Of a stretch of DNA of 64,000 bases, positions 7,225 to 19,846 are shown one piece after another. The position numbers were made by a program, and so were the translations under genes. Position 1 is the stretch's first letter. Each line of letters begins with the position of its first letter. The DNA is from Alistipes sp. (lineage in GTDB: Bacteria; Bacteroidota; Bacteroidia; Bacteroidales; Rikenellaceae), in contig JAZQHQ010000001.1 in the NCBI GenBank assembly GCA_045540675.1, forward strand, positions 1,401 to 65,400, given 5' to 3'. Below the pieces are notes generated by a model. The model did not search any database and was not told the origin of the DNA. It worked only from the letters and a program-made list of their open reading frames with translations.

Positions 7225-7497
7225 TTACTTACGAAGGTTCAAAGCCTTAACGATAGCACGATAACGCTCGATATCTACCTCCTTCAAGTACTCCAACAAC
7301 TGACGGCGCTTACCGATCATCTTCAACATCGCACGCTGTGTGCCGAAGTCGTGACGGTTGTTTTTGAGGTGCTCTGTAAGGTGGCTGATACGGTACGAGA
7401 ACAACGCGATCTGGCTCTCTGGGGAACCTGTATCGGTGTTAGACTTGCCGTACTGACCGAAAAGCTCTTGCTTTTTCTCTGCTGTTAAATAAGCCAT
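7225..7497 (-). CDS. rpsO: 30S ribosomal protein S15
   Basis: DTGSPESQIALFS...HLTEHLK...LLEYLK. Confidence 0.98.
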   Translation of the reverse strand: MAYLTAEKKQELFGQYGKSNTDTGSPESQIALFSYRISHLTEHLKNNRHDFGTQRAMLKMIGKRRQLLEYLKEVDIERYRAIVKALNLRK

Positions 7498-7529
7498 AAT
7501 AGTAAAAAATTAAAATTAAGTTATTTAAT

Positions 7530-7589
7530 AGTTTAACACTTCGTGCGCATTCGCCTTACTACGAATCACGCCAAAGCGGTGCAAAGATA
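7530..7589 (-). promoter_or_regulatory. rpsO promoter (TATCTTTG) and hairpin 5' leader, possible S15 autoregulatory element
   Basis: -7 box at 7582-7589 on the minus strand; cgtg-attcg/cgaat-cacg hairpin in the leader. Confidence 0.5.
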
Positions 7590-7723
7590 CAAATAAAATT
7601 AAGAATTAAGAATTAAAAGTTAAGAATTTACACAAAAAATATAAAAATCAGCCGATTATGGCATTTTGAGGAGTGAAACGGGCGCGCTGTTTTGTACGAT
7701 TTTTGAATTATTTTGGTGGCAGA

Positions 7724-7755
7724 TTTGGAAGTTTCGTTTTTTTGCCATACCTTTG
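7724..7755 (+). promoter_or_regulatory. Bacteroidetes sigma70 promoter of the tRNA
   Basis: TTTG (7724-7727), 20-nt spacer, TACCTTTG (7748-7755). Confidence 0.75.
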
Positions 7756-7798
7756 CACTCGCAAAACACAGGAACTCCATTTTAGAGTAAAGATACAT

Positions 7799-7872
7799 CG
7801 CGGGGTGGAGCAGCTGGTTAGCTTGCCGGGCTCATAACCCGGAGGTCGGAGGTTCGAGTCCTCCTCCCGCAA
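7799..7872 (+). tRNA. tRNA-Met(CAT), initiator (fMet) type
   Basis: Cloverleaf: acceptor CGCGGGG/TCCCGCA with C1:A72 mismatch, anticodon arm CCGGG-CTCATAA-CCCGG, T arm GGAGG-TTCGAGT-CCTCC; CCA not encoded. Confidence 0.97.
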
Positions 7873-9436
7873 CTAAACGAGACAAGTCGAAAGATTTGTC
7901 TCTTTTTTTATCTTTTTTATTTTTATAATTCACTGAAATAGTGCGTGTTATATCAAAGAACGAATTGGTGCTATTGGTTAGAAAACTTCTTTTTTCTTTA
8001 TCCCATTCAACACCCTTTGGAAAGACTAATTTTTGTATTTTTTGGCATACATCAAAGTCTTGTTTCTTCCAATAAACACCTAAATTACAAGCAATTACAA
8101 TAGTAGTCTCTATGTATTCGGCAAGGTTAGATAGATTTACGGATACTCTCTCCAACTCTGCCTCCGCTTTATGCTTATTTATCTCCAAATCTCTAATAAC
8201 TTCCAAATAGACATCTTTCTCGATTGCACCAATTGCATAGTTCTTTTTAGCACTCTTTATTTGGGTGGTTAAGGTTGCGATATTCTTCTTGATATTATCT
8301 ATATCGCTGATTTGTGTATGCGTTTTCTCTTCAAATTTCTTTTTTAAAACTATCGTCAATATAGGTAGCAATTCATTAGGTACAGCGAATCCATTGAGCA
8401 ATTCGGCATACTTTGAATGAATTTCCTTCGCTGACACATTTACGCTACCCTCCTTGCCACTATACTTATAATAATCCAAATCCTTCTTTTTAACAGTATA
8501 TCCTGATAGTGTATGCCCTAATGCGTGTATATGGTTTTTCAGCGGGAAACGAGGTGTTTCTGTCGCTTGCTCGTAACCTTTGTTGTTGCCCATAAGAATA
8601 CTTTGCACCTTCTCGAATAGTGCCTCGGAGATAAGAGGTTCTTGCTTCCCTTTTACAATCGCTCCTTTCAGCAGACTATGCTCAATTCTACCACAATAAA
8701 ACTGATTTTGTAGGCAGTTGGATAGTCTTTGTTTGCTAATATCCAGTCCTCTTAATTTTAATCTCTCTACAACCTTTGCTTGGGAAAGATTTGGTTCATT
8801 TGCAATCCATACCCAAGCATTTTTTAATATCTTGCCTTTGTCATTGACTGTTAATTTGTGTTCTTTATTTACCTTCTTGGAGTCATATCCAAGCGGTGGT
8901 TTGCTGTACCACTCGCCTCGGTTCAAACACGACACCATACCTTCGTAGCACTTATGCCTACGCATCGCATTATCAATATCTGCAATGATAAGTAGAATAG
9001 CAGATATTTGCTCTGACAGCACATTGCCCTCATCAATAGGTTGGTTTACAGATTTGATGATAACACCATTGCGTTTTAGTTGCCCTTTATATGTCAATCC
9101 CTCGTACATATTTCTGCTGAATCTATCATAGTCGAAAACAACTATTGTATCCACCTCTGGATCATTCATCACAGCACCTATCATTTCAAGAAAGTGCTCT
9201 CCTGCAACCTTCGCTGATTCAAATGTGCCACCAAAACAGTGCTTTACCTCTTTATTTAACGCTTCGCAGTAACCATTACAAGCGTCCATCTGCGTTTGAA
9301 TGGAGTGGTTCGTCTTAAACTGCTCCTCCGATGATACTCGTGTCCAAATTACTGCCTTGCCTTTACCACTCTTTGAAATAGCGAGTCTCTTTTCTACAAT
9401 CTTCTCAATACGAGTTTTCTTCTGTTTTTTAATCAT
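7832..9436 (-). CDS. Large serine recombinase (integrase); C-terminus runs antisense into the tRNA
   Basis: WTRVSSEEQ catalytic Ser, DRFSR, KPPLGY recombinase domain, NQFYCG, EPLISEALFEKVQ, coiled coil; ends RLVAGGGLEPPTSGL = reverse complement of the tRNA 3' half. Confidence 0.95.
   Translation of the reverse strand: MIKKQKKTRIEKIVEKRLAISKSGKGKAVIWTRVSSEEQFKTNHSIQTQMDACNGYCEALNKEVKHCFGGTFESAKVAGEHFLEMIGAVMNDPEVDTIVVFDYDRFSRNMYEGLTYKGQLKRNGVIIKSVNQPIDEGNVLSEQISAILLIIADIDNAMRRHKCYEGMVSCLNRGEWYSKPPLGYDSKKVNKEHKLTVNDKGKILKNAWVWIANEPNLSQAKVVERLKLRGLDISKQRLSNCLQNQFYCGRIEHSLLKGAIVKGKQEPLISEALFEKVQSILMGNNKGYEQATETPRFPLKNHIHALGHTLSGYTVKKKDLDYYKYSGKEGSVNVSAKEIHSKYAELLNGFAVPNELLPILTIVLKKKFEEKTHTQISDIDNIKKNIATLTTQIKSAKKNYAIGAIEKDVYLEVIRDLEINKHKAEAELERVSVNLSNLAEYIETTIVIACNLGVYWKKQDFDVCQKIQKLVFPKGVEWDKEKRSFLTNSTNSFFDITRTISVNYKNKKDKKRDKSFDLSRLVAGGGLEPPTSGL
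7879..7909 (+). terminator. Element-supplied terminator for the tRNA at attL
   Basis: gagacaagtc-GAAA-gatttgtctc 10-bp stem (one G-U) plus T7. Confidence 0.85.
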
Positions 9437-9599
9437 AAATTTCTTCGGTTTTCACTTTATTATTCTTGTACCACACATATCCGATTTCCGCTATTTCATC
9501 TAATCCATTAAGTATGGTTATTATATCGTCTTCGTTGGTTATCCCCAACTTGTTAAATTCTTCAATGTATCTATTTTCTAAATCATCTTTCAGAAACAT
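9429..9599 (-). CDS. 56-aa acidic protein translationally coupled to the LSR
   Basis: Manual translation MFLKDDLENRYIEEFNKLGITNEDDIITILNGLDEIAEIGYVWYKNNKVKTEEIYD; its stop overlaps the LSR start (ATGATTAA). Confidence 0.7.
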   Translation of the reverse strand: MFLKDDLENRYIEEFNKLGITNEDDIITILNGLDEIAEIGYVWYKNNKVKTEEIYD

Positions 9600-9845
9600 T
9601 ATTAAATTAGAACTTCGTGCTTTCGCACTCCCCTCGTTCTTCTTGATTTTGAGGTTGAGGGGTTATTCGCTTTCGCCTCCTACTCGGTTAATTGGTAGGT
9701 TTTCTGTTCGACAGGGGATATGCGCAAAACCCTTGTACCATATAGGCACAATAATCCTTCTCTATGGACTCATACTATTCTAAAATTTTTAATTGAAATA
9801 GGCGACAGAATCGTCTAACAAGAGCATTTCAACTCTCTTGCTGTG

Positions 9846-9853
9846 CAAATATA
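9846..9853 (-). promoter_or_regulatory. -7 promoter box upstream of the small ORF-LSR operon
   Basis: TATATTTG on the minus strand. Confidence 0.6.
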
Positions 9854-9886
9854 CCAAAAAATTTTGAATTTATAAACAGCTGGCTA

Positions 9887-10513
9887 CTAATTAGATAAAA
9901 TTTTCTGCAATTTTCTCAAAGTATTTACCGATGTTGAGGTTATTGCTTGTACATTTCTTAATGACAGTCCTTTTTTTAGCAACTGAATTTCTTTTTGGTA
10001 GTCTGTCTTCATTTGTTCGACTGATTTACGGTATCCCTCCTTTCTGCCTACCTTACCACCGCACTCTCTAAAATGGTTATAACCCGACTCCATTCTGCAA
10101 CGGATTAGACTTCTTTCCAAACTGTTGAACTGTGCAAGGATACCCATCACCAACTGCGCAATCGGATTGGGCTGTCCACTTGGTAGCAATGTTTCGAGTC
10201 CGTTCTGATGTATGTAAACAGATATTTTGCGATTTGTAAGATAATCTATCACACTCAGGAAGTCCACCGCTCGTCTTGAAAGACGGGAACACTCATAAAT
10301 TAAGACTTTATCTACCTTGTGATTTTCGGTAAAGGCGAGTAGTTTGGTTAATGCTTCACGCTCCTCAACCTTCTTGGCACCGCTTACCTTCTCGGTAAAC
10401 TCCGCCACCACCTCATACTCCATCTTCTGTGCATACTCTCGGAGTTCTGCCACTTGTCTATCAAATTCCTGAGTTTTGGTACTAACTCGTGCATATATCA
10501 CTACCTTTGTCAT
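9887..10513 (-). CDS. Small serine recombinase (resolvase/invertase family)
   Basis: IYARVST, SRLSR, C-terminal HTH (GLSLRNVQAITSTSVNTLRK). Confidence 0.95.
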   Translation of the reverse strand: MTKVVIYARVSTKTQEFDRQVAELREYAQKMEYEVVAEFTEKVSGAKKVEEREALTKLLAFTENHKVDKVLIYECSRLSRRAVDFLSVIDYLTNRKISVYIHQNGLETLLPSGQPNPIAQLVMGILAQFNSLERSLIRCRMESGYNHFRECGGKVGRKEGYRKSVEQMKTDYQKEIQLLKKGLSLRNVQAITSTSVNTLRKLQKILSN

Positions 10514-10654
10514 ATTGGTTATAGTTTAATTTTGTATGACAAAAATAATAATATATTATTAAATAAACAAATTTTATTAATATAATAATATGAATTAATT
10601 TGAATTTATTATGTATATGGTATTAAATAGGCAATTGACTTTTGCACCAACAAA

Positions 10655-10673
10655 AAAGGAGGCGTGTGCCTCC
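10655..10673 (-). terminator. Terminator after the 152-aa gene
   Basis: ggaggc-gtgt-gcctcc hairpin followed by T6 on the minus strand. Confidence 0.7.
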
Positions 10674-10698
10674 ACTTCAATCAAGACTGTGATAATCT

Positions 10699-11157
10699 TT
10701 ATAGTATCCTAAAATCAGGCCGATAACCTCTTTTGTATTCTGTTAGATGCTTAATTATCTCAGCATCTTTAATCATACAAGGAAGATCGTGCGTGAATTC
10801 AAGAATTATATCCTCTTTGGTTATTTGAAATGTCTTTCCTACAAGATAGTTGTGTAAAGGTGATGTAGAGTCTGTTACATTATCAGGAGCAACATCAATT
10901 GCTTTAATATCGTGTTTAGATGGCAATAACCTTATGACTATAAATTTTTCATTCTCTGCATTAAGTTTTGATAACTGACTTGATGCTATATCATACAAAA
11001 CACTAAAATCGTCACTCCTCACAACGCATACTGCATCATACTCAACTCCTTTATGTAATCCATCTTTTAAGATGCTATCCCTATTCTTGGCAGGTGTGAT
11101 ATGATAGAAAGGTAAATTTTTATCGATATATTCTTGTACTGTCATCGCTTTATTCAT
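10699..11157 (-). CDS. Putative ADP-ribosyltransferase-fold protein (Tpt1/KptA/DarT-like)
   Basis: FYHITPAKNRDSILKDGL (H-x-T...N..SIL..GL), AVCVV, FIVIRL, ITKEDII spaced like ART core strands. Confidence 0.6.
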   Translation of the reverse strand: MNKAMTVQEYIDKNLPFYHITPAKNRDSILKDGLHKGVEYDAVCVVRSDDFSVLYDIASSQLSKLNAENEKFIVIRLLPSKHDIKAIDVAPDNVTDSTSPLHNYLVGKTFQITKEDIILEFTHDLPCMIKDAEIIKHLTEYKRGYRPDFRIL

Positions 11158-11407
11158 TCTCTTTGGGTATATATATTAATACAAATACACTTTTTTGTAT
11201 CTCTAATGAACATTTGACATCTTGTTCATTTGTATATTCAATATGGCAATATGCCTGAGATTTTATGTTGTTATTTTCGTCTTTGTAAATTTTGTTGTAC
11301 TCTTTGATAAGATATACTTCCATTGGTAGATTAAAAATTTCGATAATATCTTTCTCAATAGATAGGTATTCATTAGTAGGTTTGCGATAAAATTTTTGTA
11401 GTCCCAT
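11150..11407 (-). CDS. 85-aa hypothetical protein coupled to the ART-like gene
   Basis: ATG start, 8-bp overlap with the next gene (ATGAATAA). Confidence 0.65.
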   Translation of the reverse strand: MGLQKFYRKPTNEYLSIEKDIIEIFNLPMEVYLIKEYNKIYKDENNNIKSQAYCHIEYTNEQDVKCSLEIQKSVFVLIYIPKENE

Positions 11408-11443
11408 AATTGTAAAAGGTTTAGTGGCTAATAAATAATTTTA

Positions 11444-11470
11444 AGGTTGGTGGCGGGAAACCACCAACCT
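11444..11470. other. Perfect 10-bp hairpin downstream of the lectin gene
   Basis: aggttggtgg-cgggaaa-ccaccaacct; no U-tract in the gene direction. Confidence 0.7.
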
Positions 11471-11499
11471 GATTGTTAAATAGATAAATAGTTAAATTG

Positions 11500-14400
11500 T
11501 TAAAAAGCGAGGACAGCACGCACAGATATTTTGTAACCCTTAGTAGCGTAACCGTCTGAAATACCAAAACTGAAATTGACACCGCAAGCGTTGTTGCTAT
11601 TGTATTCAGTAGATGACCAATAATCTTCTGTCCCGAAAGCGGTATATCCATTTGTAGAGAGAATTGAGTTTATGGTTGATTTATTATTGTAAATCGTATA
11701 TAATTCATTAAACGCAGGAAGATACCAATCCGTACCATAATCTGAACACCACTTAAATGCAGGATATTTAGTTTCCCAAGATGATAATGCTTTAATTATT
11801 GCCATATTAGTAGTTCCATTATCACTGTCTATCGCTGAGGTTGTAATCCCTGATGTACTCCACTTCAAAGATGAACCTTCGGCAACAGACACCATCTTGC
11901 CCGCATTATATGGAGTCTTTTCGATATATACAACACCAAGTCCTGTGGTATCAAGTTTCTTTGTAGAAGAAAGGTTTGCATTGAATAACTCTACGCCTTT
12001 AAGTGCTGTATTTGAAGTTAGGTCAATATCGGTAATTGCCAAACCTGATGCAACCAACACTTCAAGCAGTGTATTGTACTTTGTATCAACCACCGAAATT
12101 TCAGCGTTGTTACTTATATTAAGATATGTAAGCGCAGTGTTGTTACGGATATTGAGTGTCAAGAGGAGATTGTTTGCAATATCGAACTCCTGCAAAGCTG
12201 CATTTGCCGTAACATCGATTTTTCGCAGTTGGTTATTGTTGCAGTAGAACTTCACAAGCGAGGCGTTGTCCGATACATCGATAGAGGAGAGTCTATTGTT
12301 GTTTGCATTAATCTCTGTAAGTTTTTTGTTATTGGATAAGTCGAGAGATCTAAGGCGATTAAACGAGCAGTTTAACTTTTCGAGGTTGGTAAAATACTCG
12401 ATACCCGCAAGCGAGGTTGTCTGTGGCATAAGTCCCATAATGTCAATCTCGGTGATGTTCTCTGCCTCTGCCAACGAAATTTCGCTATCAGCATCGGTAT
12501 CAAACTTCTCGACAAGATATGCCTTGAAATTTACATCAGGAATATAGACTGTATTGGTTGTCCAAGGCACCATATTTACATAGTCGGAAGTTAAACAGTT
12601 GTAACCATTCGATACCTCCAAGCGCACATTTGCAGAGATTTCGTTACGGAAGAATCCCTCTTCGAGGTTTGTACCCGTGGCAACTACGGTCAAGATACCA
12701 TCTTTTGCCGATGCGCCCACAACAGTGAGGTTTACAAATTCGCCTACTGCAGCACGGGTTTGAGCATAGACGGCCTTAACGCTCAACGCATCTTCCCAAA
12801 CTTCAACCAACTCCTCGGCAACAGCAGCAGGACGCACCTCATATTTAAGGGTTGCACTGCCTGCGGTGATTGTGCCATTGTTCTCGGTGTAGTACATTGT
12901 TGCCTTGCAATCCGAAAACTCAGGAACAAAACTCAACGACTGAATGCGCTCGATAAGGGCAGCAATCTGCTCCTGCATCTCGGCGATATCTGCTTGCATA
13001 TTGTAAATGGTGAGTTTGATAGTCTTAACCTCTTGTTCCAAAGCTGTAACACGAGCATCGAGAGCATCTATTGTAGCGTTAATAGTTGCCACTTCGTTGT
13101 CTATACGGGTATTGATGGTTGTAACCTCCGTAGCGATAGCATCACGGAGTTGTCCATTCAAGGTGTTGATGGCGGTTTTGATTGCCTCCTTGTATGCTTC
13201 GGTAATCTCAGCAGCGGTGTTGTTGAGTTCACTTCTCAATTGTGCAATAGAGGCGGTGTTTTCGGAAATCGCCTGTGCGTTATTGCCAATAGCGGTTGCA
13301 TTGGCAGAGATAAGGGCAGCATTCTTGGCAATCTCCTCTGCGTTCTTGGCAATGGTGCGAGTGTTGGTATCTACATTTGATTGCAAAGAGGTAATTGCAC
13401 TCTTATTGCTGTTGATAAGAGTCTCGTTTGCCTCGATAAGAGATTTATTCTCGTCAATCTTTTGGCTGTTGCCCTCTATGTCTTCGCTATTCTCTGCAAT
13501 TGCCTGCGCATTGGCAGTTATCTTGGTGGCATTGTTTGAAATCTGCTCTGCATTATCCGCAATGGCGAGTTTATGTGTTGCAATTTCGCCCTGTGCTGAT
13601 GATAAATCTTCACGCAAAGCATCTATCAACTCCTTGTTGTCTGAGATATTCTTGGTGAGTTGCTCCGAGAGTTCGCTGATAAGATTTTCAAGATATGCCT
13701 TCTGTGCTTCGAGTTTGCTATTGAACTCCTGCATAATGTCGGCAAGCATCTGATTAACCTCCTGCATAGTGTAGTAACCTGCGAGTTGGTTATTAACCCA
13801 CTGTTGCATCTTTGTCTCCGAAGCGGAAATAGCATCTTTGATTGCTTGTGTATATGCTGCCTCAACCTCCTCCTTTGCTGCCGATATAGCATCTGTATAT
13901 GCTTTGGTAATCTCTGTTACCTTCTGTTGGATATTCTTGTTCAAGGTTGATACTGCCGCCTCGATATCCTCCTTAATTTTGGTGTTAAGGCGAGTTTCAA
14001 GGGCGGTAAGACTCTTGTTGATTGACTCTATCTGCGTCTTGATACTTGCGACTTCTGCTGACAATTCATTATGTTTTTCGAGAGTTGCAAAGGTTTGAGA
14101 CACCCAATCCTTTGTACTCTGAATTTCGCCATTGACATAACTCTCCAAATCGTTGATTTTATCCTCCAATGCCCTGTCCTTATTCTGTAAAGAGGTGATA
14201 GCATCGTTGATTTGTGCTAACTCGCCCTCCAATTCCGACTTTACAGATGCAAGTTGTGCCAACACATCAGATTTTGCAGTTGAAATGTTGTTTTTCAACT
14301 CCTTCTCAATACTTTCAATCTCTTTGTTTGTCAGTTCGATTGATTTTTGAAGATTACTTGCAGTGGACTGCAAATTCTCGATGTACCCTTTCAACTCCTT

Positions 14401-14583
14401 GTCTGTTTTTTTCAATTCGGGCAAAGTAGCATTGATTGCATTTACCTGCTCTTGGAGCGATGCGATTTGGGTGTTTTCAATCTCGTCAAGACGATTGTTG
14501 ATATCATCAATCGCCTCTTCAAACTTTTTGCAACTTGGCAACATCATTGCCACGACTGCAACTAACAAAAATAGTTTCTTCAT
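11500..14583 (-). CDS. Surface lipoprotein: long coiled coil, beta domain with TRA motif, LRR, C-terminal DUF1566/C-type-lectin-like domain
   Basis: MKKLFLLVAVVAMMLPSC lipobox; heptad repeats; FDTDADSEISLAEA cap then LxxLxCxxNxLxxLDLS repeats; WYLPAFNEL and YWSSTE...VRAVLAF. Confidence 0.85.
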   Translation of the reverse strand: MKKLFLLVAVVAMMLPSCKKFEEAIDDINNRLDEIENTQIASLQEQVNAINATLPELKKTDKELKGYIENLQSTASNLQKSIELTNKEIESIEKELKNNISTAKSDVLAQLASVKSELEGELAQINDAITSLQNKDRALEDKINDLESYVNGEIQSTKDWVSQTFATLEKHNELSAEVASIKTQIESINKSLTALETRLNTKIKEDIEAAVSTLNKNIQQKVTEITKAYTDAISAAKEEVEAAYTQAIKDAISASETKMQQWVNNQLAGYYTMQEVNQMLADIMQEFNSKLEAQKAYLENLISELSEQLTKNISDNKELIDALREDLSSAQGEIATHKLAIADNAEQISNNATKITANAQAIAENSEDIEGNSQKIDENKSLIEANETLINSNKSAITSLQSNVDTNTRTIAKNAEEIAKNAALISANATAIGNNAQAISENTASIAQLRSELNNTAAEITEAYKEAIKTAINTLNGQLRDAIATEVTTINTRIDNEVATINATIDALDARVTALEQEVKTIKLTIYNMQADIAEMQEQIAALIERIQSLSFVPEFSDCKATMYYTENNGTITAGSATLKYEVRPAAVAEELVEVWEDALSVKAVYAQTRAAVGEFVNLTVVGASAKDGILTVVATGTNLEEGFFRNEISANVRLEVSNGYNCLTSDYVNMVPWTTNTVYIPDVNFKAYLVEKFDTDADSEISLAEAENITEIDIMGLMPQTTSLAGIEYFTNLEKLNCSFNRLRSLDLSNNKKLTEINANNNRLSSIDVSDNASLVKFYCNNNQLRKIDVTANAALQEFDIANNLLLTLNIRNNTALTYLNISNNAEISVVDTKYNTLLEVLVASGLAITDIDLTSNTALKGVELFNANLSSTKKLDTTGLGVVYIEKTPYNAGKMVSVAEGSSLKWSTSGITTSAIDSDNGTTNMAIIKALSSWETKYPAFKWCSDYGTDWYLPAFNELYTIYNNKSTINSILSTNGYTAFGTEDYWSSTEYNSNNACGVNFSFGISDGYATKGYKISVRAVLAF

Positions 14584-14673
14584 AACAGTAAAGTATTAAA
14601 AATTAAACAATTATTAAAATGTTCGTTCTGTTATGACAATAAAGAAAGTGTGGAGAAACACTGTTCGTCTATC

Positions 14674-14894
14674 AATCTGATGGTTCTGACAAAACCTTGA
14701 CAACAATAAACGATGCGATACCCCACACCCGTAATATGCAGAATAGGGTTGCAGAATGCTCCCAACCATACATATACAAGAAATGAGTGCTATTCGTTGT
14801 CCTGTTGTCGTAAAAACTGTCAGATTTTCAGATTAGGACTGCAAAAAACACTTTCAATATGTCCGTCAATCTATTGATTGACAAGGCAAATATA
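14674..14894 (-). promoter_or_regulatory. Promoter (TATATTTG at 14887-14894) and long structured 5' leader of the lipoprotein gene
   Basis: Interrupted inverted repeat 14674-14834 (blocks aatctga, tctgaca, gacaaca, aacga) plus gtcaatc-tatt-gattgac hairpin. Confidence 0.6.
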
Positions 14895-14983
14895 AGCATT
14901 TTTTGTTTCAATGTTCTCTAAAAGAGAAACTTTTTGAATAGCACTCTGTGAAGTATCGCTCTAAATGATACAAAAAGTGAAGG

Positions 14984-15313
14984 TTAAAACACCTTCACAA
15001 TTGACTCCCAACGGAAACTACGCCACGCTGATTTTTCAATGTCAAAATAGGCGGTGGTGGAGTAAATTTCACGACTAACACCCCTACCGTTGGTATATTT
15101 GTAGGCAAGAGTGGCATTTGTTGTTCCCCACGCCTCACGGATCTCTCCGTTCTTCTTGATGTAAAGGAAGTGTCCCACACCTGTACGAAGTTTATGCTTC
15201 AAATTCTCAATCATCATCGCCTTTGCCCCTGCAACAAGGAGATTTTGAGTGCGCTGAGCAATTACATTCATTCGTACTGCTGTTGTGTCTGTTATAATCA
15301 ATGCGTTTGTCAT
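14984..15313 (-). CDS. SH3 beta-barrel / WYL_2 (DUF2693)-like protein
   Basis: FLYIKKNGEIREAWGT...YFDIEKSAWRSF pattern; likely start MTNAL at 15313. Confidence 0.75.
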   Translation of the reverse strand: MTNALIITDTTAVRMNVIAQRTQNLLVAGAKAMMIENLKHKLRTGVGHFLYIKKNGEIREAWGTTNATLAYKYTNGRGVSREIYSTTAYFDIEKSAWRSFRWESIVKVF

Positions 15314-15354
15314 AGTGTAAGATTTTTTATTACAGTTAGTTAAAATTTTAATTC

Positions 15355-15519
15355 TTAATACCAAGTTGAAGGTTTAGTCCAACCCTCCAATTCATACCAA
15401 GCATCGAGCGCTGCATATCTGCTGCGACCAAAACTTGCAACCTTATTGCCCGTTGCAATCTCCCATACGCCCCAACCACTGCCTGAGCAACCAATCTGAT
15501 ATTTTCTCTCTCGTGCCAT
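15355..15519 (-). CDS. 54-aa Trp/Gly-rich small protein
   Basis: Manual translation MARERKYQIGCSGSGWGVWEIATGNKVASFGRSRYAALDAWYELEGWTKPSTWY; -7 box at 15553-15560. Confidence 0.7.
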   Translation of the reverse strand: MARERKYQIGCSGSGWGVWEIATGNKVASFGRSRYAALDAWYELEGWTKPSTWY

Positions 15520-15552
15520 ATTTTATTAATATCATATCCATTATTTCTACTA

Positions 15553-15652
15553 CAAAGATAAAACTTTATTATTAATAATCCAAATTATTTTAACATTTTA
15601 TTTTAATTTTATCTAAATAATTTAACATTCTGATATTTATTTTCTATCTTTG
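15553..15652. promoter_or_regulatory. Divergent promoter pair
   Basis: TATCTTTG on the minus strand (15553-15560) and plus strand (15645-15652); repeated tttaacatt between them. Confidence 0.7.
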
Positions 15653-15671
15653 TCTAAAATTTTGGGATAGT

Positions 15672-15965
15672 ATGGCAAAACTACGAGTAAAGCAGATTGT
15701 AAAGGAGAAGGGTTTAACATTGGCAAAAGTGGCTGAGATGTTGGAAATCCACCCTGTAAATTTAAGTACCACCCTCAACGGTAATCCAACCATCGCAACA
15801 TTGGAGAAGATTGCAAATGTATTGGGAGTAGATGTTACCGACTTAATTGAAACCGAGAACAAACCTATTGTAAGTGGTTTTGTAAAGGTTGATGGAGAGG
15901 TTATTGAAATCACTTCTGTTGCCGATTTGGAACAGGCATTGAATAAGGCAAAGGAGTTGAAGTAA
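15672..15965 (+). CDS. XRE-family helix-turn-helix regulator
   Basis: KGLTLAKVAEMLEIHPVNLSTTLNGNPTIATLEKIANVLGV. Confidence 0.92.
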   Translation: MAKLRVKQIVKEKGLTLAKVAEMLEIHPVNLSTTLNGNPTIATLEKIANVLGVDVTDLIETENKPIVSGFVKVDGEVIEITSVADLEQALNKAKELK

Positions 15966-16184
15966 TGCCCTTCAATTTTTGATACTTTTTAGGTATCAAT
16001 TTTTGAAATAATTAACTGATAGTTTTTAATCATTTTTTGATTAAATTCTGTCAGTTTTTTTGTTTTTAACATTACTGATAATACTCTACTTTTCTTTGAA
16101 AAATAATTGCACCATATTTCAATATCTATCTTTTTATTTTTCAGTTTGATAGTCTTAAAATATATGCAGTGATAAGGGTGGTTA

Positions 16185-17033
16185 CTATCTTATGCTACCA
16201 CTACACAATATATCTTTCCAAAGTAGTCGCTTTCTACCTCTTCGAAATCTTATTACCCTACTAAGAGCATCGTGGAAAATATCTGTTAGGACTTCTCTGT
16301 TGAATAGTAAATTTGATTCATCTTCGCTTTCAAACCGTTTGAGATAATCGTAATTCAACCGAACTTCAAGACGGTGCAAAGATTTGGGACTGCCGTAGAA
16401 CTCTGTTACATAAGATTTGTGCGAACTCTCCTTTATCTCTGCCAACTTGTTGTATGCACATACATATATCCCATTCCTCTTATTTTGCACTGCTTCTCTC
16501 TGACAGCAGTAGAAAGTAGGATCCTTTAACCTATCAAGAGTAACCTTGTATGTGATATGCAGTTCAGGAATACTCTTTTTTCTATCGTATATCTCTTTAC
16601 CATTGACGATAGTTGCGACACTCTTATCCTTGTATAACTTGCGAATGGTGTATACAAAGTTCTTTTTACTATCCGTTGCCAAGTCTAACGATGTGATATT
16701 GTTGTAGGTTAGATTTAAGGTGCTTTTTAACTCTCTTAATATATCTGCCAAGTTGCTCTCATATAGCAATCTGTTATCAATCTTTAACCAAATATAACTA
16801 CTGTCATCATCTCCATATCGCCCAAAATAAATATGCCCACAATCCTTGTCATATAACAATACACGGAAATAGTATTGAAAGTGCAACCCCGATATTCTAA
16901 TTATAGAAAATTCTCCAACCTCAATCCGCTCGCCAATGCCGACACAGCGAAGTGCTTCTAATGTTTCAGGTTGTGCTATGTAACACAACCTTACTCCATC
17001 AATAATCACCTTACCCAACTTTTCATTGCTCAT
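16185..17033 (-). CDS. Rep_trans-like rolling-circle initiator / MOB_T-type relaxase
   Basis: ITSLDLATD, YNKLAE and RLEVRL motifs in Rep_trans order; likely start MSNEK at 17033 overlapping the upstream ORF. Confidence 0.65.
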   Translation of the reverse strand: MSNEKLGKVIIDGVRLCYIAQPETLEALRCVGIGERIEVGEFSIIRISGLHFQYYFRVLLYDKDCGHIYFGRYGDDDSSYIWLKIDNRLLYESNLADILRELKSTLNLTYNNITSLDLATDSKKNFVYTIRKLYKDKSVATIVNGKEIYDRKKSIPELHITYKVTLDRLKDPTFYCCQREAVQNKRNGIYVCAYNKLAEIKESSHKSYVTEFYGSPKSLHRLEVRLNYDYLKRFESEDESNLLFNREVLTDIFHDALSRVIRFRRGRKRLLWKDILCSGSIR

Positions 17034-17223
17034 CACTTTTAGAAGATTTGACACTATTATTGTCATTCCCATATTTGGAAGGGATTGAGTCCCACACACG
17101 CTTTAATGATTGGGATAGGTGCTGACGATGCCAATAACTTTTTTTCTTACCTTTAAGACTTTGACTGATTTTCATCTTTACAGAGTCATCAAGTTCTCTG
17201 TATTTGCGTTTATATTCACTCAT
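17023..17223 (-). CDS. 66-aa basic protein with NUMOD3-like repeats
   Basis: SVKMKISQSLKGKKKSYWHRQHLSQSLK. Confidence 0.7.
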   Translation of the reverse strand: MSEYKRKYRELDDSVKMKISQSLKGKKKSYWHRQHLSQSLKRVWDSIPSKYGNDNNSVKSSKSDEQ

Positions 17224-17567
17224 AATTTTATAAAGCAGGGATTTTTATTTCCTGTCATATATAAATATGGTAGCAAAAGTAAAAAAGTAAAGTATAGTAG
17301 AAACTTTTTGAAAAAATAGTTACTTAAATTTTTAGTAACAGACAACAAGTTCTTACTATTCCTCCTACTTTACCCATTAATTTTAAGGCGGGATACGCCT
17401 GAGTAACTAATTGATAGATAGTCCTATATCATAGGTAGATATTAGTCTATTTTTGAAAATAAACTTTGTCAAACAAAGTGGGATAAATTGGGTAAAAGAA
17501 GGGAAAATCTGTTTTTATAGACAATGCTCGAATAAAAGATAATCTTTTAAGTTAAAATAGTACAGGC

Positions 17568-17591
17568 AGAGGGAGGTTTTCGCCTCCCTCT
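17568..17591. other. 9-bp perfect hairpin near the right end of the element
   Basis: agagggagg-ttttcg-cctccctct. Confidence 0.65.
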
Positions 17592-17633
17592 ATTGATTAA
17601 AAAGTACGATAATTAAATTGATACATCAACGCC

Positions 17634-17720
17634 TTATTCAATCTTATTGTACCACTTCCAAAAGGCAATTACTAAGTCGTAATCAATTAAGAAACGGTTA
17701 GATAAGTTGATTGTTTGTTC
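17634..17720 (-). other. Detached alternative 3' end of the LSR gene (attP arm)
   Basis: In frame with the LSR across the shared core: EQTINLSNRFLIDYDLVIAFWKWYNKIE*. Confidence 0.75.
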
Positions 17721-18080
17721 AACTAAAAGAGAATAGTCGCCTATTCTCTTTTTTTGTTGCGCTCGGAGGCTCGGTCAGTCGGTGGCGTCTCGGCAAACTT
17801 GTCTGCGAGTTATGCGATAGTAGTTGTTGCTACGCAACTACGATAACAGATTAAAAATCAATAGTTCAAATAAATTTGACTACTGCTTTTCAATCTATTC
17901 TCGAAACTTTCAGTTTAACTCCTATCGCATATCTCTCCGGTCTGCTCTCAACTGCTGCGACCGTTCGAGTCCAATTTACAATGAAATGGTTAGACAGGTT
18001 GTTTGTTCAACTAAAAGGGGTTAATCGAATGATTGTCTCTCTTTTTTTGTTGCGTTCGGAGGCTCGGTCAGTCGGTGGCG
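17691..18080 (+). repeat. Two imperfect ~95-bp direct repeats (attR-like), 288 bp apart
   Basis: gaaa(c/t)ggttaga...gtttgttcaactaaaa...tttttttgttgcg(c/t)tcggaggctcggtcagtcggtggc at about 17691-17785 and 17983-18078. Confidence 0.85.
17728..17755 (+). terminator. Terminator right of attR (probable pre-insertion tRNA terminator)
   Basis: agagaatag-tcgc-ctattctct plus T-run. Confidence 0.8.
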
Positions 18081-18207
18081 GTGTGGCAGAGTTGTCTTTG
18101 CTATTGGCTAACTAAAAACGCTTGCGCCGAAAATAATTCTTAATTTTTAATTCTTAATTCTTAATTATATTTGTATTTTTGCAAAAAATATAAATAAAGG
18201 TATAGCA

Positions 18208-18792
18208 ATGTTTTTGGAGAATTGTACACAGAAGGGTTGGATTGAGGTTGTTTGCGGCTCGATGTTTTCGGGCAAGACCGAGGAGTTGATTCGCCGCTTG
18301 CGCCGTGCGGAGTTCGCACATCAGCGCGTTGAGATTTTTAAGCCACAGATTGATGTGCGCTATTCGGAGGACGAGGTGGTTTCGCACAACCACTCTTCGA
18401 TTCGCTCTACGCCCGTAGAGTCACCACAGCAGATTTTGTTGATGTCCTCGGAGGTCGATGTTGTGGGTGTCGATGAGGCGCAGTTCTTCGATGATAGCAT
18501 TATCGATGTCTGTCGCGAGTTGGCAAATCGTGGCGTGCGTGTTATCGTTGCCGGTCTTGATATGGACTTCCTCGGCAAGCCGTTCGGTCCGATGCCTGCA
18601 TTGATGGCTATTGCGGAGTATGTCGATAAGGTACACGCCATCTGCGTACACTGCGGAAACCCTGCGCAACACTCGCACCGCTTGGCAAAGAGCGAGAAGT
18701 TGGTGATGCTCGGCGAGAAGGATACCTACGAGCCCGTATGCCGTCACTGCTTCCTTCGTCTGCGCAAGGAGCAGGAGGAGCAAGCACAATAA
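18208..18792 (+). CDS. tdk: Thymidine kinase
   Basis: [13 protein letters not shown], Zn-binding CxxC motifs. Confidence 0.97.
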
Positions 18793-18844
18793 ACATGAAA
18801 ACATTGCGTTAAGTTATTACGACAAAAATTAACCGAAAAGAGAT

Positions 18845-19846
18845 ATGAGTGATAACATTATCAACATCAAAGAGTTGAACGAGCGCATCGAGCGTGAGAG
18901 CCTCTTTGTGGATACTCTGCGTACAGAGATGGGTAAGGTGATTGTCGGTCAGCAACACCTTGTCGATACACTTTTGATTGGTCTTTTGTCCAACGGACAC
19001 ATCTTGTTGGAGGGTGTTCCGGGTTTGGCAAAGACTTTGGCTATCACAACCTTGGCAAAGGCTGTCGATGCCGACTTCTCGCGTATTCAGTTTACGCCTG
19101 ATTTGCTCCCTGCCGATATTGTGGGTACTCTGATTTACTCGCAGAAGGCGGAGGATTTTACCGTTAAGAAGGGACCTGTATTTGCGAACTTCGTATTGGC
19201 AGATGAGATTAACCGTTCCCCTGCAAAGGTGCAGTCGGCTCTCTTGGAGGCTATGCAGGAGCGACAGGTTACCATTGGCGACAACACCTACAAGTTGCCT
19301 GAACCATTCCTCGTTCTCGCTACCCAAAACCCATTGGAGCAGGAGGGTACATACCCACTCCCAGAGGCGCAAGTAGACCGTTTTATGTTGAAGGCGAAAA
19401 TCTCCTATCCGAAGCGTGAGGAGGAGCGCGATATTGTTCGTATGAACCTCTCGGGTGCGGGTATGCCACAGCCGAATAGGGTTATTACGCCAGAGGATAT
19501 TGTGAAGGCTCGCAAGGTGGTTGAGGATGTATATATGGACGAGAAGATTGAGAAGTATATCGTAGATATCATCTTCGCAACTCGTGAGCCGGCAGCCTAC
19601 AACCTCGAAAAGTTACAGTCGTTGATTGCCTACGGAGGCTCACCGCGTGCAAGTATCTCGTTGGCAAAGGCAGCGCGCGCTTACGCCTTTATCCGCCGCC
19701 GTGGATATGTTATTCCTGAGGATGTTCGTGCGGTGTGCCACGATGTTTTGCGTCACCGTATTGGCTTGACCTACGAGGCAGAGGCGGAAAATATCACTTC
19801 GGAGGATATTATCACCGAGATTTTGAATAATGTAATCGTGCCTTAA
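18845..19846 (+). CDS. moxR: MoxR-family AAA+ ATPase
   Basis: LEGVPGLAKT, RIQFTPDLLPAD, DEINR, ATQNP. Confidence 0.93.
   Translation: MSDNIINIKELNERIERESLFVDTLRTEMGKVIVGQQHLVDTLLIGLLSNGHILLEGVPGLAKTLAITTLAKAVDADFSRIQFTPDLLPADIVGTLIYSQKAEDFTVKKGPVFANFVLADEINRSPAKVQSALLEAMQERQVTIGDNTYKLPEPFLVLATQNPLEQEGTYPLPEAQVDRFMLKAKISYPKREEERDIVRMNLSGAGMPQPNRVITPEDIVKARKVVEDVYMDEKIEKYIVDIIFATREPAAYNLEKLQSLIAYGGSPRASISLAKAARAYAFIRRRGYVIPEDVRAVCHDVLRHRIGLTYEAEAENITSEDIITEILNNVIVP

Follow-up and report, generated by a model that had tools for sequence, protein, structure and literature searches.

A 64,000-nucleotide stretch of an Alistipes sp. genome (assembly GCA_045540675.1, contig JAZQHQ010000001.1, positions 1,401 to 65,400; hereafter the window) carries an element that very probably entered the genome of an Alistipes/Rikenellaceae-type gut bacterium through the action of its own large serine recombinase (LSR), at the position just 3′ of the discriminator base of an initiator tRNA-Met. 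With high confidence, we conclude that the attachment site of this element, attP, lies inside the LSR gene and that the C-terminus of the enzyme is exchanged on integration. As judged from the DNA, integration and excision exchange 28 residues under selection for 12 residues dictated by the tRNA. The structural reading of this tail exchange is well supported, while a true regulatory role for it would be, on our analysis, possible if somewhat improbable.

The integrated LSR open reading frame (ORF) crosses attL and ends ...KKRDKSFDLSRLV-AGGGLEPPTSGL*, that is, ...DLSRLV followed by 12 residues whose codons read as tRNA-Met(CAT) in reverse complement, with a TGA stop that is the antisense of U33-C34-A35 in the anticodon loop. 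Initiator features can be read from the sequence of this tRNA (a C1xA72 mismatch and a GGG/CCC anticodon stem); among the three CAT tRNAs of the 90%-complete assembly, only the copy at 7799-7872 has them, and the tRNA was the only match in the Rfam scan. A scripted join of 9436..7878, one core and 17719.. yields an in-frame ORF of 550 aa with the 28-aa tail EQTINLSNRFLIDYDLVIAFWKWYNKIE* and a stop at 17634-17636. The preliminary description of this DNA had proposed an integrated ORF of 534 aa whose last 12 residues are read antisense through the tRNA, and a core-to-core join that stays in frame and gives 550 aa; all of its numbers check, and the in-frame junction at this core is borne out both by the scripted join and by an empty site in a relative.

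That empty site is found in G020, a close relative, whose contig aligns with window positions 7393-7877 at 98.4%, then from 17720 onward at 89% and over 18036-19524 at 92.7%, the overlap of the alignments being the 8-bp core only. Since the G020 site breaks exactly at the core, the element comprises 7878-17719 plus one core copy, or ~9.85 kb. The core includes three tRNA nucleotides, and attR carries no tRNA fragment. In G020, the tRNA is directly followed by a hairpin matching window positions 17728-17752, and this hairpin is therefore the host's original tRNA terminator, displaced to attR; once the element is integrated, the P′ arm hairpin and its T7 run serve as the tRNA terminator. Symmetry suggests that the att centre lies near the C|T of the core, about which a likely half-site in the P arm, GGTTAGAAATTTCGAT, mirrors ATCGCAAGATTTGTCC in the P′ arm. 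The P′ arm block D-K-S-x-D-L-S-x-L-V is conserved in the LSR family. A second genome, G005, shares both this element and its attL, on a contig that ends within the LSR. The attR of the same or a related element was sought in G005 and G072 with chance matches only, and the contigs of these metagenome-assembled genomes (MAGs) end inside the element. Coordinates of the features are collected in Table 1.

Table 1. Features of the element and its flanks, in window coordinates.
Feature	Position	Strand	Evidence or remark
tRNA-Met(CAT), initiator-type; B arm of attB/attL	7799-7872/3	plus	ARAGORN; Rfam RF00005, 58.9 bits; CCA not encoded
LSR, integrated isoform	7832-9436	minus	534 aa; Pfam Resolvase and Recombinase domains
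attL core CAACTAAA, 8 bp	7870-7877		Last 3 nt of tRNA and 5 nt of trailer; G020 empty-site alignment ends at 7877
P′ arm	7879-7909	plus; minus	10-bp hairpin and T7 (plus); LSR residues KKRDKSFDLSR (minus); fold -14.6 kcal/mol, z = -4.5
56-aa ORF, overlapping LSR start	9429-9599	minus	Candidate partner or directionality factor
Small serine recombinase, 208 aa, upstream of LSR	9887-10513	minus	Pfam Resolvase 7.7e-32; gene order alike in L067
Cargo: 152-aa and 85-aa pair; 1027-aa coiled-coil/leucine-rich repeat (LRR)/Lcl_C protein; 126-aa WYL_2 protein; 89-aa ORF	10699-15913	minus
Far-end genes	16185-17223	minus	304-aa protein, 16185-17099; 66-aa ORF, 17023-17223
Hairpin, 9 bp, G+C-rich	17569-17592	minus	~45 nt past the excised-form LSR stop; fold z = -3.3; without classic U run; possible terminator of the full-length LSR gene
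P arm of attP	17634-17720	minus	28 codons of native LSR tail EQTINLSNRFLIDYDLVIAFWKWYNKIE and stop 17634-17636
attR core CAACTAAA	17720-17727		G020 alignment resumes at 17720
B′ arm, hairpin and T run	17725-17756	plus	Terminator scan; fold z = -5.9
Relic unit, without counterpart in G020	17757-18015	plus	Repeat module 17756-17972; P-arm relic 17976-18007; third core 18008-18015

The tail was compared across 13-14 distinct junction sequences (this element and 13 others), none of which has an indel within the first 24 codons. Summed over pairs, differences at codon positions 1, 2 and 3 number 740, 626 and 1184, and all 24 third positions are variable as against 17-19 of the first and second. The ratio of nonsynonymous to synonymous substitution rates (dN/dS) is 0.26 in the LSR frame vs. 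1.3-1.4 in the other two frames. Moreover, every junction sequence can be read without interruption in the LSR frame to its own stop (22 or more codons), whereas the other frames contain one to three stops in nearly all. For codons 10-22 alone, 28-66 nt from the junction, the differences are 371, 281 and 619, with a dN/dS of 0.24 compared to 1.5 out of frame. Because the signature is equally strong in these codons, beyond the likely att half-site, the tail is a protein-coding extension under selection, with the consensus x-x-x-I-E-I-S-N-x-F-(L/I)-x-D-(Y/F)-E-x-V-I-x-F-x-(K/E)-W. The last residues of native tails differ (..NKIE, ..GFEV, ..NRGL, ..RSIL, ..ETVY), the conserved part being internal, and no conserved end resembling a degradation tag (-LAA-like) was found among them. 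The idea that the tail mimics an internal ..SVNLSNLAEYIE.. at the end of the coiled coil was rejected, as aligning the tail profile to the family with hhalign gave no match.

Relatives of the LSR show both forms of the C-terminus. A word-indexed search of 5.8 billion proteins returned 197 relatives at E <= 1e-20, and tails were read in the best 120 of these 197 clusters (48-99% identity). Nearly all full-length members (>100) end in A[GE]xGLEPxTSGL, the antisense of tRNA-fMet of various hosts; in a few, a shift in a homopolymer has moved the reading of the tRNA to a different frame. Among the same best 120, four clusters with an intact LSR have a native tail directly after ..LV, namely P0099 (EQTIEISNQFIGDYERVLGFEV), P0022 (GLHIEISNRFICDLERINLFIKWLKNRGL), P0031 (GLCINLSDLYLAHYRCVIAFYKWLL...) and P0027 (GFALDCTNDFVYWFKRIKSFKF). 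Two contigs of these four clusters run on past the tail. In locus L067, the order is a small resolvase, a 47-aa ORF, an LSR with tail, 470 bp, and then a homologue of the 304-aa far-end protein (E 8e-10), while in locus L066 an LSR with tail is followed by a homologue of the 66-aa far-end ORF (E 2e-17). Given that homologues of the far-end genes continue past the LSR tail, these loci represent attP-type junctions, circularly permuted with respect to the island. The preliminary description had looked to homologues of this type for a tail like that of the rebuilt gene, and they do carry one, of the form EQT/GH-I-E/N-I/L-S-N-x-F. It had also taken the second copy of the P arm, at 17976-18007, as a sign of coding selection; coding selection itself holds, on the dN/dS of the junctions, but the second copy lends it little weight, since its frame is broken and NLSNHF shows there only in a shifted frame.

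At the DNA level, a degenerate junction pattern gave seven loci in Alistipes/Rikenellaceae MAGs and four from the metagenome scan, three of the four with a family-type tail, and none in viral contigs. One relic, L072, keeps the predicted P-core-P′ junction of the element, with 85 nt of P arm, the core and the 25-nt P′ hairpin all identical. A protein search with region 470-550 of the 550-aa form returned the two closest integrated forms only. Annotated plasmids and phages had no match above ~31% identity, and none above 24% over most of the LSR. In a related element at tRNA-fMet (L059, G072:C1:45200-48971), a homopolymer frameshift cuts the LSR to 473 aa, with the downstream codons and the attL junction otherwise kept in register.

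The same layout extends well beyond close relatives. When 1.84 billion cluster representatives were searched exhaustively with HMMER, 350 matched at E <= 1e-30, and tails were judged in the best 122 full-length ones (50%-identity representatives). Since ~92 of these 122 end in antisense T-arm-type peptides (G[LFIV]EP, R[IL]EL and similar), the layout characterizes a large LSR clade that targets tRNA genes. A few of the 122 have ..(I/L)SN(F/L)xxD(F/Y).. tails, in which S-N stand 7 and 8 residues past the junction, as in this LSR. The layout recurs at many tRNA targets and in LSRs with identity as low as ~27%. A sister LSR family of the same genus (35% identity, ~500 aa) is located at tRNA-Leu, with an ORF that stops two to three codons into the tRNA; its loci include L010 (G005), L011 (G022) and L013 (G012), and longer variants read through other tRNAs (..RDSNPHASRHQILSLARLPITP..).

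A PF00239 catalytic domain with the serine nucleophile spans LSR residues 28-174 (E 8.6e-15), with R33-V34-S35 invariant across 62 LSR relatives, and a PF07508 Recombinase domain spans residues 216-282 (31.8 bits; cut-off 21.1). An AlphaFold2 model of the homologue P0022 has a mean predicted local distance difference test score (pLDDT) of 81 and places beta strands at residues 303-335, where the ribbon would be expected, and a coiled-coil insert in helices 354-401 and 407-432. Foldseek matched this model to the solved LSRs of SPbeta (9y66, 9dxd), phiC31 (9tep), Bxb1 (9iu2) and LI (4kis) at E 1e-15 to 1e-9; on the model, the overall fold is that of a large serine recombinase, in the domain order resolvase, recombinase, and ribbon with coiled-coil insert. 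The LSR of the window has no Cys in the region equivalent to the ribbon strands (FPLKNHIHALGHTL...), while more distant relatives keep ribbon cysteines as C...C-x4-C and some match PF13408. In window positions 8420-8560 (LSR residues ~293-340), the subfamily has lost all ribbon-domain cysteines, which relatives at ~54% identity keep as C...C-x4-C. A helix at residues 519-548 of the P0022 model runs through the tail, and AGGGLEPP in the integrated isoform would be expected to break it.

Several points weigh against the reading of attP and the tail given above. The circle junction of this exact element was seen in no contig, and tandem arrays, instead of free circles, could be the source of the attP-type contigs. 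Most of the loci that fit the junction pattern are dead relics, consisting of the last 20-100 LSR codons and often adjoining tRNA-fMet. The tail helix of the P0022 model has a pLDDT of ~50. In addition, tail codons 4-8 (IEISN) overlap the likely LSR half-site GGTTAGAAATTTCGAT, so part of the tail conservation is at the DNA level. Taken to its limit, this last point would mean that the tail is conserved solely as the P-arm DNA binding site of attP, with a frame open by chance. The IEISN and DKSxDLS codons do fall on inverted motifs resembling half-sites, 12-27 nt from the centre, and throughout the clade S-N keep the same spacing from the junction. Nevertheless, the third-position excess and the contrast in dN/dS between frames extend into codons 10-22, past a typical LSR half-site, and the LSR frame alone stays open to its own stop, which makes conservation as DNA only highly improbable. 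We give equally little credence to a different right end, at a third copy of the CAACTAAA octamer (18008-18015), from which an element of 7878-18015 would excise to encode ...LVEQTTCLTISL* and a protein of 532 aa. In its favor, P-arm-like sequence, core and hairpin recur at the third core, and G020 also lacks the 288-bp unit concerned. However, the hairpin in the G020 empty site is the one at 17728 and not the one at 18016, the frame of the arm at 18008 is broken by a 4-nt deletion, the L072 junction was made with the 17720 arm, and the G020 state is derivable by recombination between two 60-nt repeats.

What the exchange does for the element is less clear-cut. With attP placed in the 3′-terminal part of the LSR gene, where the P′ arm codes for ...KKRDKSFDLSRLV and the P arm for the last 28 residues, integration cuts the gene at the crossover. 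The chromosomal copy then encodes the 534-aa protein, and excision or a tandem junction rebuilds the 550-aa gene. In the mechanism that we propose, the full-length, tail-bearing enzyme from the free element would perform attP x attB integration, and the tail-less chromosomal isoform would be available for excision, probably with the 56-aa partner. DNA state would set which isoform is made, as for IntP and IntX of the Myxococcus phage Mx8; Magrini et al. are said to have described this change of the Mx8 integrase from IntP to IntX in 1999. One could go further and regard the tail swap as a state sensor, in which the 550-aa isoform would come only from a free or tandem attP and its C-terminal amphipathic helix would license the enzyme for, or restrict it to, attP x attB, while the 534-aa isoform without the helix would be excision-competent or locked until the small partner acts. 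We consider this unlikely, although if it were true, directionality control would be partly written into the gene's own rearrangement across the tRNA-targeting LSR clade. A plainer explanation, to which we give nearly an even chance, is that the swap is real and has no regulatory meaning: the tail would be an ordinary structural end, the tail-less isoform would be tolerated or partly crippled, and directionality would be set entirely by the mechanism of coiled coil and recombination directionality factor (RDF), as in other LSRs. Purifying selection shows no more than that the tail matters in the free form, and the integrated tail, being dictated by the tRNA, leaves no room for tuning. The element also has a conserved small ORF as a candidate RDF, the tail profile is unlike every other part of the LSR, and the P0022 model has low confidence in the tail. 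On the other hand, a layout that persists at such low identity and over so many tRNA targets is hard to call an accident, and excision must use the tail-less isoform, so the isoforms face different tasks.

The right flank of the element may record earlier events at the same site. The unit of 288 bp missing from G020 contains a P-arm relic with the 4-nt deletion, which in frame from its core reads LVEQTTCLTISL*, while the reading NLSNHFIVNW needs a shifted frame; from its sequence, we read 17976-18007 as what is left, after decay, of the attR of a related element that came earlier. Within 17976-18048, the relic P arm and third core are joined by a hairpin like the P′ hairpin of the element, and a second copy of the 60-nt stretch 17745-17804 follows. 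Stacked relics are found beside tRNA-fMet in many Alistipes genomes (L069, L070, L073, L075), which suggests that attL-like sites have been entered repeatedly. Native tRNA-fMet terminators are closely similar to the P′ hairpin of these elements, and this likeness may let attL stay a target, which could account for the stacks.

Other repeats nearby appear unrelated to the ends of the element or are of less certain origin. A 49-nt inverted repeat, 7580-7628 / 18135-18183 (94% complementary), brackets the tRNA and the island and was rejected as a pair of element ends because it belongs to a genome-wide AATTCTTAATT-type repeat, with ~40 genome copies beside Bacteroidota-type promoters. The ~210-nt module at 17756-17972 recurs 30-45 nt downstream of tRNA-Leu (twice), tRNA-Ser, tmRNA (transfer-messenger RNA) and tRNA-fMet, always on the same strand (G000 C79:27547-27761, C82:47565-47768, C19:4058-4260, C33:44586-44793, C65:42613-42816; L033 in G068). 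Its copies open with an inverted copy of the adjoining gene's own 3′ end and close with ..CTGC(G/C)(A/G)CCGTTCGA and 4-6 nt copying the T loop of the adjoining gene. The module has no match in Rfam; it may be what remains of T-loop-targeting elements, or else a tRNA-linked RNA.

The genes of the element are arranged on the minus strand in the order 66-aa ORF, 304-aa protein, 89-aa ORF, WYL_2 protein, 1027-aa protein, the 85-aa and 152-aa pair, small serine recombinase, 56-aa ORF and LSR. The 56-aa ORF has a 47-aa homologue at the same position in L067 (46% identity, E 3e-10), and a 56-aa gene stands upstream in L080 as well. At the far end, the 304-aa protein has a weak Rep_trans match (17 bits, under the Pfam cut-off), and the 66-aa ORF, the first gene past the junction, is basic with a KISxSxKGK motif and has a 64-aa homologue in L066. 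Judging by position and conservation, either the 56-aa or the 66-aa ORF could encode a directionality factor.

Serine integrases are major genome-engineering tools, and to our knowledge, coiled-coil contacts and separate directionality factors are so far the only explanations offered for the one-way action of these enzymes. The present analysis points to a large natural clade in which integration at tRNA genes rewrites the integrase gene itself. If true, this would define a new LSR class with predictable, universally conserved targets, add a second level, open to testing, at which directionality or dosage is controlled, and explain the stacked att relics by tRNA-fMet in many Alistipes genomes. 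Should the isoforms prove equivalent, the locus would still be a clean case of dual-coded DNA, with att site, tRNA terminator and protein in one stretch. Databases hold almost only the chimeric integrated isoform, and annotations of these enzymes should be read with that in mind.

In the literature searched, neither an LSR gene that spans attP nor LSRs directed at tRNA genes had been described, and a 2014 survey held that only tyrosine integrases were known to target tRNA genes (tDNAs) (PMC4383910). Canonical LSRs (phiC31, Bxb1, Listeria A118/U153/LI, SPbeta SprA, TP901-1) share with this enzyme their domain order, fold, short att sites and a probable small partner. However, their attP lies outside the int ORF and their targets are protein genes or intergenic regions, whereas here the gene spans attP and the target is a tRNA gene; identity to them is ~23-27%, and the ribbon cysteines have been lost here. 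Islander-type tDNA islands have a tyrosine integrase, a copied tRNA 3′ end and a displaced tRNA fragment, in contrast to the serine integrase and fragment-free attR of this element. In SSV-type fusellovirus integrases, attP also lies in the integrase gene and the target is a tRNA gene (cited in PMC4383910), although these are archaeal tyrosine recombinases whose gene is split into two large parts, as opposed to the short tail exchanged here.

Closer parallels come from systems in which integration changes the behaviour of a protein. In the mycobacteriophages BPs, Brujita and Charlie and in corynephage CyranoPS, immunity depends on integration because attP is in the repressor gene (PMC9262239; 10.64898/2026.10.29.762952); as here, attP lies in a coding gene beside a tRNA target, and both the C-terminus and the behaviour of the encoded protein are changed by integration. 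There, however, the repressor is cut, the integrase is a tyrosine recombinase and an ssrA-like tag is removed, while the native tails of this family are without an -LAA-like end. For the Mx8 integrase, with its change from IntP to IntX, attP has been placed inside the integrase ORF (Tojo et al., 1996, as cited in PMC4383910). Mx8 has in common with this LSR an attP in the integrase ORF, a tRNA target, a C-terminus replaced on integration and an isoform picked by DNA state. Its Int belongs to the tyrosine recombinases and has a long shared core, whereas the present system combines an LSR, an 8-bp core, an antisense-tRNA tail and a clade-wide layout. Because of its serine recombinase chemistry, this LSR is an analogue of the Mx8 type and not a member of it.

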